A stretch of 64,000 nt of DNA. Origin: Escherichia coli (GTDB lineage: Bacteria; Pseudomonadota; Gammaproteobacteria; Enterobacterales; Enterobacteriaceae). This document shows positions 33,585 to 41,025 of this stretch, in pieces. Under the pieces are notes generated by a model. The model had not been told where the DNA came from, did not search any database, and worked only from the letters and a program-made list of their open reading frames with translations. The position numbers were made by a program, and so were the translations under genes. The first letter of the stretch is position 1. Each line of letters opens with the position of its first letter. The stretch lies in the NCBI RefSeq assembly GCF_003334355.1, contig NZ_QOWP01000001.1; one strand, given 5' to 3'.

Positions 33585-34214
33585 TTATGCCCACTCATTT
33601 TTTAACGCTTGATGATGCAGCTGCAGCCATTGCAAAGCGATGACCGACGCTGCGTTGTCGATTTTCCCCTCTTCTACCCACTGGTATGCCTGTTCCCGGC
33701 TTACCACATGAACGCGAATATCTTCGTTTTCATCAGCCAGACCATGAATACCGCTTGCGGTCGTGGCGTCCACTTCGCCCACCATAATTGACGAACGCTC
33801 ACTGGTGCCTCCCGGGCTTGCCAGGAAACTTAACACCGGTTTGGTCCGTTTGACTATCAGTCCCGCCTCTTCAATCGCTTCGCGACGGGCAACATCTTCC
33901 ACACTTTCACCCTCTTCAATCATCCCGGCAACCATCTCCAGTAGCCAGGGGGTTTCACTGGTGTCGTATGCGGCAATCCGAATCTGCTCAATCAGCACAA
34001 CTTCATCACGCACTGGGTCAAAGGGTAGCAAGACTGCGGCGTGACCGCGCTCAAAAATTTCCCGCCGTACCTCATGACTCATTTGCCCGTTGAATAAACG
34101 ATGACGAAATCTATAAAGATCTAATGAAAAAAAGCCGCGATAAAGTGTTTCTCGTGCAATAATTTCTACATCGTTTTTGCCAAATGTAACGGGCAGGCTG
34201 TCTGGCTTAAGCAT
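33585..34214 (-). CDS. nudF: ADP-ribose pyrophosphatase NudF (Nudix)
   Basis: 209-aa ORF; Nudix-box region (...[19 protein letters not shown]...). Confidence 0.93.
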
Positions 34215-34315
34215 TGTTAATGTCCTGGCACTAATAGTGAATTAAATGTGAATTTCAGCGACGTTTGACTGCCGTTTGAGCAGTCATGTGTTAAATTGAG
34301 GCACATTAACGCCCT

Positions 34316-34336
34316 ATGGCACGTAACGCCAACCTT
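34316..34336 (+). promoter_or_regulatory. Candidate MarA/SoxS/Rob box upstream of tolC
   Basis: ATGGCACGTAACGCCAACCTT fits the marbox pattern AYnGCACnnWnnRYYAAAY reasonably; tolC is a known mar/sox/rob regulon member (established knowledge). Confidence 0.45.
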
Positions 34337-34418
34337 TTGCGGTAGCGGCTTCTGCTAGAATCCGCAATAATTTTACAGTTTGATCGCGCTAAATACTGCT
34401 TCACCACAAGGAATGCAA

Positions 34419-35900
34419 ATGAAGAAATTGCTCCCCATTCTTATCGGCCTGAGCCTTTCTGGGTTCAGTTCGTTGAGCCAGGCCGAGAACCTGATGCAAG
34501 TTTATCAGCAAGCACGCCTTAGTAACCCGGAATTGCGTAAGTCTGCCGCCGATCGTGATGCTGCCTTTGAAAAAATTAATGAAGCGCGCAGTCCATTACT
34601 GCCACAGCTAGGTTTAGGTGCAGATTACACCTATAGCAACGGCTACCGCGACGCGAACGGCATCAACTCTAACGCGACCAGTGCGTCCTTGCAGTTAACT
34701 CAATCCATTTTTGATATGTCGAAATGGCGTGCGTTAACGCTGCAGGAAAAAGCAGCAGGGATTCAGGACGTCACGTATCAGACCGATCAGCAAACCTTGA
34801 TCCTCAACACCGCGACCGCTTATTTCAACGTGTTGAATGCTATTGACGTTCTTTCCTATACACAGGCACAAAAAGAAGCGATCTACCGTCAATTAGATCA
34901 AACCACCCAACGTTTTAACGTGGGCCTGGTAGCGATCACCGACGTGCAGAACGCCCGCGCACAGTACGATACCGTGCTGGCGAACGAAGTGACCGCACGT
35001 AATAACCTTGATAACGCGGTAGAGCAGCTGCGCCAGATCACCGGTAACTACTATCCGGAACTGGCTGCGCTGAATGTCGAAAACTTTAAAACCGACAAAC
35101 CACAGCCGGTTAACGCGCTGCTGAAAGAAGCCGAAAAACGCAACCTGTCGCTGTTACAGGCACGCTTGAGCCAGGACCTGGCGCGCGAGCAAATTCGCCA
35201 GGCGCAGGATGGTCACTTACCGACTCTGGATTTAACGGCTTCTACCGGGATTTCTGACACCTCTTATAGCGGTTCGAAAACCCGTGGTGCCGCTGGTACC
35301 CAGTATGACGATAGCAATATGGGCCAGAACAAAGTTGGCCTGAGCTTCTCGCTGCCGATTTATCAGGGCGGAATGGTTAACTCGCAGGTGAAACAGGCAC
35401 AGTACAACTTTGTCGGTGCCAGCGAGCAACTGGAAAGTGCCCATCGTAGCGTCGTGCAGACCGTGCGTTCCTCCTTCAACAACATTAATGCATCTATCAG
35501 TAGCATTAACGCCTACAAACAAGCCGTAGTTTCCGCTCAAAGCTCATTAGACGCGATGGAAGCGGGCTACTCGGTCGGTACGCGTACCATTGTTGATGTG
35601 TTGGATGCGACCACCACGTTGTACAACGCCAAGCAAGAGCTGGCGAATGCGCGTTATAACTACCTGATTAATCAGCTGAATATTAAGTCAGCCCTGGGTA
35701 CGTTGAACGAGCAGGATCTGCTGGCACTGAACAATGCGCTGAGCAAACCGGTTTCCACTAATCCGGAAAACGTTGCCCCGCAAACGCCGGAACAGAATGC
35801 TATTGCTGATGGTTATGCGCCTGATAGCCCGGCCCCCGTCGTTCAGCAAACATCCGCACGCACTACCACCAGTAACGGTCATAACCCTTTCCGTAACTGA
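34419..35900 (+). CDS. tolC: Outer membrane efflux channel TolC
   Basis: ORF trimmed to the ATG giving 493 aa (MKKLLPILIGLSLSGFSSLSQA signal, then ENLMQVYQQARLSNPELRKS...). Confidence 0.97.
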   Translation: MKKLLPILIGLSLSGFSSLSQAENLMQVYQQARLSNPELRKSAADRDAAFEKINEARSPLLPQLGLGADYTYSNGYRDANGINSNATSASLQLTQSIFDMSKWRALTLQEKAAGIQDVTYQTDQQTLILNTATAYFNVLNAIDVLSYTQAQKEAIYRQLDQTTQRFNVGLVAITDVQNARAQYDTVLANEVTARNNLDNAVEQLRQITGNYYPELAALNVENFKTDKPQPVNALLKEAEKRNLSLLQARLSQDLAREQIRQAQDGHLPTLDLTASTGISDTSYSGSKTRGAAGTQYDDSNMGQNKVGLSFSLPIYQGGMVNSQVKQAQYNFVGASEQLESAHRSVVQTVRSSFNNINASISSINAYKQAVVSAQSSLDAMEAGYSVGTRTIVDVLDATTTLYNAKQELANARYNYLINQLNIKSALGTLNEQDLLALNNALSKPVSTNPENVAPQTPEQNAIADGYAPDSPAPVVQQTSARTTTSNGHNPFRN

Positions 35901-35907
35901 TGACGAC

Positions 35908-35927
35908 GACGGGGCTTCGGCCCCGTC
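35908..35927 (+). terminator. GC-rich hairpin after tolC
   Basis: GACGGGGC-TTCG-GCCCCGTC directly after the tolC stop; no strong T-tract follows, so it may be a stabiliser or weak terminator. Confidence 0.45.
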
Positions 35928-36047
35928 TGAACGTAAGGCAACGTAAAGATACGGGTTATCTGCCGCATTCTTCCCCCTTCTCGCTTCAATTTCGACCAGC
36001 CATCCTCTATTCTGATGGGTATTTACCACTGGTCCCGGAAGACAAAA

Positions 36048-36719
36048 ATGAAACGGACAAAATCCATACGCCACGCATCGTTCCGCAAAAACTGGAGCGC
36101 ACGCCATCTGACACCAGTCGCTCTCGCGGTTGCCACTGTTTTTATGCTGGCTGGCTGTGAAAAGAGTGATGAAACAGTGTCTCTCTATCAAAATGCTGAC
36201 GACTGTTCAGCTGCAAACCCAGGCAAAAGCGCCGAATGTACCACCGCGTACAACAATGCGCTGAAAGAAGCCGAACGTACTGCGCCGAAATACGCCACCC
36301 GTGAAGACTGTGTTGCTGAATTTGGTGAAGGTCAGTGCCAGCAGGCACCAGCCCAGGCTGGCATGGCACCAGAAAACCAGGCGCAGGCCCAGCAATCCAG
36401 CGGGAGTTTCTGGATGCCGCTGATGGCCGGTTACATGATGGGGCGTCTGATGGGCGGCGGCGCGGGATTTGCACAGCAGCCGCTGTTCTCCTCGAAAAAC
36501 CCAGCCAGTCCGGCTTACGGTAAATATACCGACGCGACGGGTAAAAACTATGGCGCAGCCCAGCCAGGCCGCACCATGACCGTACCGAAGACGGCAATGG
36601 CACCAAAACCGGCGACCACCACTACCGTTACCCGTGGCGGTTTTGGTGAATCTGTTGCCAAACAAAGCACTATGCAGCGTAGTGCAACCGGTACCTCTTC
36701 TCGTTCAATGGGTGGCTGA
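36048..36719 (+). CDS. ygiB: DUF1190 family lipoprotein YgiB
   Basis: ORF trimmed to 223 aa ([37 protein letters not shown]..., lipobox LAGC); low-complexity Gln/Ala/Gly/Met-rich middle. Confidence 0.85.
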
Positions 36720-36724
36720 TACCG

Positions 36725-37885
36725 ATGGAAAGAGTCAGTATTACCGAGCGCCCGGACTGGCGTGAGAAAGCCCACGAATACGGTTTCAATTTTCACACCA
36801 TGTACGGCGAGCCGTACTGGTGTGAAGATGCTTACTACAAGTTGACCCTCGCCCAGGTTGAAAAGCTGGAAGAAGTCACCGCCGAACTGCACCAGATGTG
36901 CCTGAAAGTGGTGGAAAAAGTGATCGCCAGCGATGAGCTGATGACCAAATTCCGCATTCCAAAACACACCTGGAGTTTTGTGCGCCAGTCATGGCTGACG
37001 CACCAGCCATCGCTTTATTCTCGTCTTGATCTGGCGTGGGATGGCACTGGTGAACCTAAACTTCTGGAAAATAACGCCGATACGCCAACGTCACTATACG
37101 AGGCGGCGTTCTTTCAGTGGATCTGGCTGGAAGATCAGCTTAACGCCGGTAACTTGCCGGAGGGCAGCGACCAGTTTAACAGTCTGCAAGAAAAACTGAT
37201 CGATCGCTTCGTTGAGCTGCGTGAACAGTATGGCTTCCAGTTGCTGCATCTCACCTGCTGTCGCGACACGGTGGAAGATCGCGGAACCATTCAGTATTTG
37301 CAGGACTGCGCAACGGAAGCTGAAATTGCTACTGAGTTCCTCTACATCGATGATATCGGGTTAGGTGAAAAAGGTCAGTTCACGGATTTACAGGATCAGG
37401 TTATTTCCAACCTGTTCAAGCTGTATCCGTGGGAGTTTATGCTGCGTGAGATGTTCTCCACCAAGCTGGAGGATGCAGGCGTACGCTGGCTGGAACCGGC
37501 GTGGAAGAGCATTATCTCCAACAAGGCACTTCTACCGCTGTTGTGGGAGATGTTCCCGAATCACCCGAACCTGCTGCCCGCTTATTTTGCGGAAGATGAT
37601 CATCCGCAAATGGAAAAATATGTGGTTAAGCCGATCTTCTCCCGTGAAGGCGCAAACGTGTCGATCATTGAGAACGGCAAAACCATTGAAGCAGCGGAAG
37701 GTCCGTATGGCGAAGAAGGAATGATTGTTCAGCAATTCCACCCGTTACCGAAATTCGGCGACAGCTATATGCTGATTGGTAGCTGGCTGGTGAACGATCA
37801 ACCCGCCGGAATTGGCATTCGTGAAGACCGTGCATTGATCACCCAGGATATGTCTCGGTTTTATCCACATATTTTTGTTGAATAA
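36725..37885 (+). CDS. ygiC: Glutathionylspermidine synthetase-like ATP-grasp protein YgiC
   Basis: 386-aa [43 protein letters not shown]...; starts 6 bp after ygiB. Confidence 0.9.
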
Positions 37886-37922
37886 GCCACGATACCGGAT
37901 GGCACTCGCCATCCGGTAATTG

Positions 37923-38711
37923 TTAGCCTATCTGCACCGACAGCATACTCAGGCTGCCCATTTCTATACCCTCAACCGGAATGGTAATTGGCTCCTGCCC
38001 ATCCCACGCACCTAACACATACAACAACGGCAAATAATGCTCTGGCGTTGGGTTCGATAACGTGCCACCTTCATGGTCGAGGTAATTCACCAGAGGATGT
38101 TGTTCCACTAGCCCTTGCCACGTCAGATTCGCTTTCACATACTCATTAAACGACGTCGCCCACGGATACGGTGAACTATCACCGTGCCACTTCACTGTGC
38201 GCAGGTTATGCACCACGTTACCGCTGGCGACCAACATTATTCCTTCATCTCGCAGCGCTGCCAGTTTGCGCCCCATTTCGAAATGCCAGGCGGCAGGTTT
38301 GCTACTGTCGATACTCAACTGCACCATCGGGATATCAGCGTCAGGATACATCTTAATCAGCACGCCCCACGAGCCGTGGTCAAAGCCCCAGGCTTCTTTA
38401 TCCAGCGTCACCGGGATCGGCGCTAACAGCTCAACCAGACGCTGTGCCAGCGCAGGCGAACCCGGAGCAGGATAATGCGTATCGTACAGCGCCTGCGGGA
38501 AGCCACCAAAGTCATGAATCGTGGGCGGCGTCTCCATCGCGGTCACTCCTGTTCCACGGGTAAACCAGTGAGCCGAAACCACCACAATCGCTTGCGGGCG
38601 TGGCAATGTCATCCCCAACTTCTGCCAGCTGCGGGTATACAAATTATCTTCCAGCACGTTCATCGGACTACCGTGACCTAAAAACAATGCTGGCATACGT
38701 GTTGAAGACAT
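37923..38711 (-). CDS. ygiD: Extradiol ring-cleavage dioxygenase family protein YgiD (DOPA dioxygenase-like)
   Basis: ORF trimmed to the internal ATG giving 262 aa (MSSTRMPALFLGHGSPMNVLEDN...); a start 9 codons upstream (MTPLVKDII...) is also possible. Confidence 0.85.
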   Translation of the reverse strand: MSSTRMPALFLGHGSPMNVLEDNLYTRSWQKLGMTLPRPQAIVVVSAHWFTRGTGVTAMETPPTIHDFGGFPQALYDTHYPAPGSPALAQRLVELLAPIPVTLDKEAWGFDHGSWGVLIKMYPDADIPMVQLSIDSSKPAAWHFEMGRKLAALRDEGIMLVASGNVVHNLRTVKWHGDSSPYPWATSFNEYVKANLTWQGLVEQHPLVNYLDHEGGTLSNPTPEHYLPLLYVLGAWDGQEPITIPVEGIEMGSLSMLSVQIG

Positions 38712-38853
38712 GATGATATCCTTAACTAAAGGTGTCATTTTGATATCCTCACAATACGCTTGTTCGGCGGAGTAAGAACCCGGATAACAATGATGATGAT
38801 CATCAGTTATTTTGACGATCTGCCTGAAGGTGAAGATTTATAAGGAGTTGTCG

Positions 38854-40869: not shown

Positions 40870-41025
40870 GAATCGTTACTCTCTCCCATCCGGACTCTAA
40901 CCGTCGGCCCCGGAATTACACCGGATCTGCTGTCCTTTGAGTTCGCACTCAAAGCGCTCGCGGGCTTTCAACCAAGTTGATTTACCGCCGGTGGGGAATT
41001 TCGCCCCGCCCTGAGAATAAGCGGA
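40870..41025 (-). promoter_or_regulatory. FMN riboswitch (RFN element) in the ribB 5' leader
   Basis: Minus-strand leader contains the conserved RFN blocks ...GGGGCGAAATTCCCCACCGGCGGTA...AGCCCGCGAGCG...GGACAGCAGATCCGGTGTAATTCCGGGGCCGACGGTTAGAGTCCGGATGGGAGA..., upstream of the riboflavin-pathway gene ribB. Confidence 0.85.

Follow-up and report, generated by a model that had tools for sequence, protein, structure and literature searches.

The ygiB-ygiC gene pair downstream of tolC in Escherichia coli as a probable conserved module of an exported DUF1190 lipoprotein and an ATP-grasp ligase

What do YgiB and YgiC do, and why does the metabolic collapse of tolC mutants worsen with them? This question, raised in a 2025 review of TolC, concerns two adjacent genes found at positions 36,048 to 37,885 of the 64,000-nucleotide stretch of Escherichia coli DNA that was analysed here (contig NZ_QOWP01000001.1, assembly GCF_003334355.1; hereafter the window). 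ygiB-ygiC is a known and ordinary annotated gene pair of E. coli, and nothing new is required to account for its sequence, as the pair is annotated and structures of the enzyme have been solved. Very probably the two genes form a known conserved module in which an adenosine triphosphate (ATP)-grasp peptide-spermidine ligase, YgiC, is co-transcribed with an exported lipoprotein of the DUF1190 family, YgiB, and which is located behind tolC in Enterobacterales. For the activity of YgiC, the operon status and the tolC-related growth phenotype we follow the published accounts quoted below; the physiological role of ygiBC would presumably lie in envelope or polyamine stress. New here are the taxonomic spread of the module, the elements of the tolC-ygiB spacer (a hairpin, a CpxR-like box and a promoter-like element) and the hydrophobic-Gly-Gly terminus of the lipoprotein.

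Gene coordinates derive from the RefSeq annotation of E. coli HS, transferred to the identical region of the window, and features lie on the + strand unless stated otherwise. The interval 34.3-38.0 kb agrees at 100% identity with several E. coli chromosomes; the ygiB-ygiC region was found in 5,426 of 5,426 complete E. coli genomes, with at least 80% of this interval being covered in 5,422 of them. ygiB (36048..36719) encodes a DUF1190 lipoprotein precursor of 223 residues, identified by Pfam PF06693, NCBIfam NF008655 and RefSeq, and ygiC (36725..37885) encodes a cytoplasmic ATP-grasp acid-amine ligase of the GSP_synth family with 386 residues, identified by Pfam PF03738 and by identity to PDB entries. 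Both pairs of coordinates agree exactly with those of the initial annotation, whereas the gap between the genes, given there as 6 bp, amounts to 5 nt (TACCG, 36720..36724) when counted from stop codon to ATG. The outer membrane channel gene tolC (34419..35900; RefSeq annotation of E. coli HS and open reading frame) lies upstream in the same orientation as ygiBC. In a program-made list of open reading frames, the start of ygiB is an in-frame ATG at 36015 and that of tolC a TTG at 34380, the RefSeq starts being 36048 and 34419; starting at 36048, YgiB has a canonical basic n-region and places its lipobox cysteine at residue 37, as in its orthologues.

YgiC consists of a single Pfam domain, GSP_synth (E=4.4e-164), which extends over residues 12-384 and covers model positions 1-371 of 371. 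Over all its 386 residues it is 100% identical to the protein of PDB entries 7UK8/7UKA ('Putative acid-amine ligase YgiC'), and its E. coli paralogue YjfC (PDB 7UK6/7UK7) matches it at E=1.3e-129. The ATP-grasp fold is documented by these crystal structures, deposited for the identical sequence, and the domain is modelled by AlphaFold2 with a predicted local distance difference test (pLDDT) score above 90. YgiC aligns to residues 251-617 of the bifunctional, 619-residue Gss and, in trypanothione synthetase, to the half that carries the synthetase. Because the alignment to Gss spans residues 251-617 only, YgiC has no amidase domain, and Pfam likewise found no second domain that could represent the N-terminal amidase. 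The description of YgiC as an ATP-grasp enzyme resembling the synthetase part of glutathionylspermidine synthetase, proposed from the sequence alone together with a domain search as its check, is thus borne out by the full-length match and by the catalytic residues. The Leishmania and E. coli enzymes share, under strict conservation, seven residues that bind the triphosphate and Mg2+ and stabilise the transition state of the acyl phosphate, namely LmTSA R328, D330, E344, N346, K513, K548 and R613, corresponding to EcGSPS R316, D318, E330, N332, K498, K533 and R598 (Fyfe et al. 2008, PMC2427367). Mapped through the Gss alignment, their equivalents in YgiC (R100, D102, E115, N117, K267, K302 and R366) are identical in all seven cases. 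Among 138 family members with 37-52% identity, the first five of these do not vary, and 136 members retain K302 and 134 R366. The catalytic residues of an ATP-grasp enzyme, the loss of which would have spoken against the initial annotation, are therefore present.

In vitro, YgiC is a peptide-spermidine ligase according to the 2025 TolC review (PMC11762307, citing Pederick 2023), and the E-64 paper uses the name 'peptidylpolyamine synthetases' for enzymes of the YgiC/YjfC type. The substrate of YgiC, which the first reading of the sequence could not name, has in this way become known in part, as regards peptide-spermidine ligation in vitro but not as regards the physiological substrate. By analogy with the glutathionylspermidine and trypanothione synthetases, YgiC would activate a C-terminal carboxylate as an acyl phosphate with the help of ATP and two Mg2+ ions; this acyl phosphate would then be attacked by the amine of a polyamine, yielding an amide. 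YgiC has been recovered in inner-membrane proteome fractions, though it is classed as cytoplasmic.

YgiB belongs to the DUF1190/UPF0441 family (Pfam PF06693, E=3.5e-55; NCBIfam NF008655, 404 bits against a cutoff of 223), and its significant structural matches in AFDB50 are exclusively DUF1190 proteins. The N-terminus, encoded at 36048..36158, carries a basic n-region, a hydrophobic h-region and the lipobox L-A-G-C with Cys37, which fits the pattern [LVI][ASTVI][GAS]C and is followed by Glu at position +2; 64 of 69 homologues have a lipobox. By the +2 rule, the presence of Glu instead of Asp after the lipobox cysteine favours the outer membrane. The TolC review calls YgiB a 'predicted OM lipoprotein', that is, one of the outer membrane (PMC11762307), and the protein has been detected in vesicles of a tolA mutant. 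The signal peptide and lipobox are followed by a four-cysteine alpha/beta domain (residues 38-100; 36159..36347), by a variable Gln/Ala-rich loop (residues ~101-120; 36348..36407) that is gapped or expanded in other genera, by a conserved hydrophobic motif (36408..36446) and, at the end of the protein, by a predicted flexible tail (36633..36716) in which an RGGFG motif and a variable spacer precede the terminal Ser-Met-Gly-Gly. Among 46 diverse homologues no variation occurs at Cys37, Cys53, Cys64, Pro80, Cys88, Cys97, Pro124 (in the hydrophobic motif), Pro145 and, in RGGFG, Arg196, Gly198 and Gly200; Gly222 and Gly223 are nearly invariant. YgiB had been described as a lipoprotein with a low-complexity core. 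Both the lipobox and the composition bias are real, the Gln, Ala, Gly and Met fraction reaching 0.56-0.64 in 25-residue windows spanning residues ~89-145, compared with 0.16-0.28 at the N-terminus, but this stretch combines the variable Gln/Ala loop, which is the truly low-complexity part, with a hydrophobic motif conserved throughout the family.

The AlphaFold2 model of YgiB is partly confident, with a mean pLDDT of 71.6 and a predicted template modelling score of 0.60. The four-cysteine domain (residues 41-100) is modelled at pLDDT ~90, or 87-91 over the whole of the domain, and a beta-rich region (residues 141-190) at ~87. The Gln/Ala loop is predicted to be disordered, with two 10-residue blocks at ~51-54 and residues 104-107 and 111-117 below 50, and so are the last ~24 residues, residues 200-217 scoring below 50. 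The hydrophobic motif is modelled as beta-strands (122-124 and 128-132) at pLDDT ~90 and not as a membrane helix. A transmembrane helix that would place the basic tail in the cytoplasm was considered and rejected on account of these strands and of the hydropathy, the maxima of 19-residue Kyte-Doolittle windows past the signal peptide being 0.37-1.16 (median 0.75) across YgiB homologues. The N-terminal domain is net negative and the tail net positive in 60 of 60 homologues, a charge split that, going by the model, probably reflects packing inside a single periplasmic fold. YgiB would thus be exported and, as its lipobox suggests, lipid-anchored, with its four cysteines in one domain, a core rich in beta-strands and a basic tail that is flexible.

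The genomic context of the ligase was scanned with one genome per species, giving 80 loci in which the ligase is 47-95% identical to YgiC. A DUF1190 gene is found alongside the ligase in about 70 of them. When ligase starts are refined by homology, it lies directly upstream on the same strand, at a distance of -10 to +20 nt, in 57 of 70 distinct loci. Pairs of this kind occur in Enterobacterales, Alteromonadales, Vibrionaceae, Xanthomonas, Rhizobiales and SAR116, that is, in both Gamma- and Alphaproteobacteria, whereas tolC adjoins in 22 of the 80 loci, and exclusively in Enterobacterales. As the pairing is broad and adjacency to tolC is restricted to a single order, it is the DUF1190-ligase dyad that is conserved as a functional unit, the linkage to tolC being lineage-specific, and this is a first narrowing of the question asked by the review. 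Judged by this distribution, the DUF1190-ligase pair is an old module of Gamma- and Alphaproteobacteria, newly described here as such. E. coli itself has a paralogous pair, yjfM-yjfC, at the end of the PspA-type cluster yjfIJKLMC, and a DUF1190 protein ('metal-chelating lipoprotein') together with a GspS-like ATP-grasp ligase has been noted in PspA-type envelope-stress operons (Ravi et al., PMC11237479).

Some loci depart from this arrangement. In Sphingomonas (L061, L067 and L069) and Pseudovibrio (L040 and L046), the DUF1190 gene is located 1.5-3.5 kb from the ligase and is read from the other strand; it shares a divergent operon with a DUF350-like gene encoding a protein that ends GILNAACMT[NY], and the DUF1190 protein retains its terminal Gly-Gly. 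A metagenomic contig (L085:856-3138, and also L086) carries two tandem GSP_synth ligase genes 3' of a lipoprotein ending GGRGGGA and not Gly-Gly. Another ligase homologue, 37% identical (L083:5001-6182), has no DUF1190 neighbour, and the Pfam matches surrounding it are eukaryote-like or giant-virus-like (eIF-1a, microbial PARG). Two 569-residue proteins of E. coli assemblies (P0121 and P0122) were considered as DUF1190-GSP_synth fusions and rejected: each results from a shift of reading frame shortly (a few codons) ahead of the ygiB stop, and errors of assembly or annotation are their most likely origin. Long ligase homologues (P0349, P0287 and P0362) were likewise set aside as informative fusions, their extensions being unrelated or likely due to frameshifts.

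How is the pair expressed? That ygiB and ygiC form one operon, as suggested earlier by their tight spacing, agrees with the 5-nt spacer and with the close adjacency that holds in 57 of the 70 distinct loci, and the two genes would be transcribed together and probably coupled in translation. The possible co-transcription with tolC, also suggested in the initial annotation, is in line with the published assignment of tolC, ygiB and ygiC to one operon (PMC11762307, PMC10333786), with the nuance that ygiB has a promoter of its own, Cpx-regulated, in Citrobacter rodentium, as reported with a ygiB-lux reporter in a preprint. The same preprint places a putative CpxR site between tolC and ygiB, at a position equivalent to that of the E. 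coli box described below.

The tolC-ygiB spacer was aligned across 15 Enterobacterales genera. Just 3' of the tolC stop codon, a hairpin (GACGGGGC-UUCG-GCCCCGUC, 35908..35927) without a U-tract is predicted, the fold of 35890-35960 having -26.1 kcal/mol (z=-2.39). The terminator scan of the spacer scored no terminator-like site on the + strand, and the hairpin, which would permit read-through into ygiB, probably acts either as a terminator of low or partial efficiency or to stabilise the RNA. Most of the genera have a hairpin at this position; that of Enterobacter, Mangrovibacter, Rahnella and Pectobacterium runs into a U-tract and resembles a full terminator, unlike that of E. coli or Citrobacter. 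Transcriptional coupling of tolC and ygiBC may therefore differ among genera. Further downstream is a putative CpxR-box-like direct repeat (GTAAGgcaacGTAAA, 35933..35947) of the form GTAAG-N5-GTAAA, one mismatch away from GTAAA-N5-GTAAA. Escherichia, Citrobacter, Pseudocitrobacter, Kluyvera, Enterobacter and Mangrovibacter share the same two halves of the repeat, and a related GTATA-N5-GTAAA is found in Pantoea, Brenneria and Pectobacterium. The best conserved block of the spacer is a candidate promoter-like element of ygiBC (35985..36013), with a -35 TTCAAT (35985-35990), a 17-nt spacer and a -10 TATTCT (36008-36013), and it would fit the activity of the ygiB-lux reporter in C. rodentium. The layout is compatible both with read-through from tolC and with an independent ygiBC promoter. 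In Enterobacterales, the module behind tolC would then be reached by read-through past the U-tract-less hairpin and be transcribed in addition from its own conserved promoter, probably a Cpx-responsive one. A second narrowing of the question thus suggests a module with a conserved promoter region and a Cpx-like box of its own.

Several points weigh against the reading of ygiBC as a co-transcribed module with a defined activity. The TolC review describes both the physiological substrate and the role of YgiC as unknown (PMC11762307), and the tight linkage of an exported lipoprotein with a cytoplasmic ATP-dependent enzyme lacks an explanation. In the spacer, a scan for the strict sigma-70 consensus called no promoter, the conserved element remaining under the threshold. 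Moreover, GTAAA-N5-GTAAA with at most one mismatch occurs 10 times in the 64-kb window against 3.45 expected, a number that 0 of 100 shuffles reached; as such patterns are over-represented across the whole window, a single site is weak evidence.

On the 3' side, ygiC converges with ygiD (37923..38711, - strand; RefSeq annotation of E. coli HS). The two genes are separated by a hairpin at 37895..37916, to which no strand is assigned, with a perfect 9-bp stem (10 bp with a flanking A-U pair in the fold) that is unique in the window. Its fold has -24.7 kcal/mol (z=-5.0), a stability reached by none of 200 shuffles, and it is likely a bidirectional transcript end. The Rfam scan of 34200-38800 returned nothing relevant. 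Outside ygiBC, a flavin mononucleotide riboswitch is annotated at 40874-41022 (- strand) 5' of ribB in the identical region of E. coli HS.

The linkage of lipoprotein and ligase might have a direct biochemical cause, namely that YgiC amidates the terminal glycine carboxylate of YgiB (and YjfM) with spermidine, before or during export, and so creates a polyamine-tipped envelope lipoprotein. We consider this unlikely, though it is the alternative that survives best. It follows from two properties of the enzymes: the family activates C-terminal glycine carboxylates (PMC2427367), and YgiC reportedly accepts peptides (PMC11762307), so that the C-terminus of DUF1190 proteins suggests itself as the natural substrate. 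The analogy would be with GspS, which acts on the glycine of glutathione. The terminus itself speaks for the idea. Gly-Gly ends 65 of 69 unique DUF1190 proteins as compared with 10 of 1,191 other open reading frames of at least 150 residues, and the position before it (-3) is Met, Phe, Trp or Tyr in 56 of the 65. E. coli YjfM, only 23% identical to YgiB, ends HWGG. Reduced relatives in Bradyrhizobium, encoded directly 5' of the ligase, no longer have the cysteine domain or the hydrophobic motif but retain the N-terminal anchor, RGGFG and the terminal Gly-Gly, and in a distant locus with rearranged gene order the lipoprotein still ends GGGFGG. In the model, moreover, the tail of YgiB is predicted to be flexible.

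A more trivial cause of this terminus was considered, since the Gly-Gly codons of ygiB (GGTGGC) are located 8-13 nt 5' of the ygiC ATG and terminal GGN-GGN codons could serve as the Shine-Dalgarno sequence of the ligase. It was rejected: the glycine codons at position -2 are GGC (31), GGT (14), GGG (5) and GGA (5), so that all four are used without preference for GGA, and Gly-Gly is retained in 11 of 13 loci with a non-adjacent ligase, including loci whose ligase lies far away or on the opposite strand. The codon mix and this retention thus argue for a constraint acting on the protein and not on a ribosome-binding site, which again favours the substrate idea. The DUF1190 part that always travels with the ligase would in this way be narrowed, as a third comparative step, to a flexible tail ending in Gly-Gly.

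Against an action of YgiC on YgiB speaks the topology, since the lipobox and the beta-strand motif predict a mature YgiB that is wholly periplasmic, tail included, whereas YgiC needs cytoplasmic ATP. When YgiC was modelled in AlphaFold2 as a fusion with a 30-residue Gly/Ser linker and the last 16 residues of YgiB, using 34 paired sequences, the tail scored a pLDDT of ~29 and gave no docking signal, a kind of test that often misses true peptide substrates. Four members of the family end GS, AG or SG, and the literature consulted holds no direct evidence of a modified YgiB. We therefore give a low probability also to the broader proposal of a C-terminal spermidinylation of envelope lipoproteins by YgiC and YjfC that is linked to PspA- and TolC-related envelope stress; if it were true, however, the two enzymes would carry out a previously undescribed protein modification.

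Could YgiB and YgiC instead be dedicated accessory factors for the assembly or activity of TolC, which would explain the shared operon? The genes are co-oriented with tolC across a 147-nt spacer and are assigned to its operon in the publications quoted above. The review also connects ygiBC with the growth defect that tolC mutants show in minimal glucose medium (PMC11762307, citing Dhamdhere and Zgurskaya 2010), and loss of ygiBC together with yjfMC is reported to worsen this defect in the same medium (PMC11762307; C. rodentium preprint). Nevertheless, this explanation is very unlikely. In Alteromonadales, Vibrionaceae, Xanthomonas, Rhizobiales and SAR116 the pair has no tolC beside it, tolC adjoining in only 22 of the 80 loci, and the paralogues yjfMC are part of a PspA-type cluster. 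Deletion of the genes reportedly leaves the localisation, folding and activity of TolC unaffected (PMC11762307). In several genera what looks like a full terminator separates tolC and ygiB, and in C. rodentium ygiB and tolC respond to Cpx in opposite directions (preprint).

Still less probable is that YgiC is a genuine monofunctional glutathionylspermidine synthetase, as its product name 'glutathionylspermidine synthase family protein' suggests. The full-length GSP_synth match and the homology to Gss 251-617 and to trypanothione synthetase favour it. In addition, E391/E392 of Gss, which we take to be the acidic pair on the polyamine side, aligns with E184/D185 of YgiC. The residues that presumably contact glutathione in Gss differ, S335/S337/C338 being aligned with T120/T122/S123, and C539, D610 and T441 being replaced. 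The reading is practically dismissed by the score of YgiC against the NCBIfam Gss equivalog model NF007801 (168 bits, below the cutoff of 882) and by two papers that, each citing Sui 2012, deny it glutathionylspermidine synthetase activity (PMC11762307, PMC12506659), the latter, from 2025 and on enzyme-function mis-prediction, illustrating the problem with the erroneous 'glutathionylspermidine synthase' label of YgiC.

The module can finally be set beside known systems. E. coli Gss (PDB 2IO7) and the Leishmania trypanothione synthetase-amidase (PDB 2VOB) share with YgiC the same GSP_synth ATP-grasp synthetase domain and the seven identical triphosphate/Mg2+ residues, and their chemistry, an acyl phosphate followed by attack of an amine, is presumably alike. 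Differently from Gss, YgiC has no N-terminal amidase, lies far under the equivalog cutoff and reportedly does not use glutathione; YgiC for its part is encoded beside a DUF1190 lipoprotein. RimK, which acts on ribosomal protein S6, and LysX, which acts on LysW, may offer an analogy of another kind, on which the substrate idea leans, as they too are ATP-grasp ligases encoded near a small protein with a conserved C-terminus, but they belong to another ATP-grasp family, add amino acids and not polyamines, and have cytoplasmic substrates. A further close system is yjfM-yjfC in the PspA/IM30-type cluster yjfIJKLMC, with the same DUF1190-ligase dyad in the same gene order and a 2-nt spacer. YjfM resembles YgiB in its lipobox, cysteine pattern, hydrophobic motif, RGGYG (similar to RGGFG) and terminal Gly-Gly, despite the 23% identity of the two proteins, and the pair differs from ygiBC in being preceded not by tolC but by yjfI, yjfJ (PspA-like), yjfK and yjfL (DUF350). 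With the E. coli acid-amine ligases YgiC and YjfC of known structure (7UK8/7UKA and 7UK6/7UK7; Pederick et al. 2023) the comparison is direct: the YgiC of the window is the same protein as the YgiC of that work, with no difference between them.

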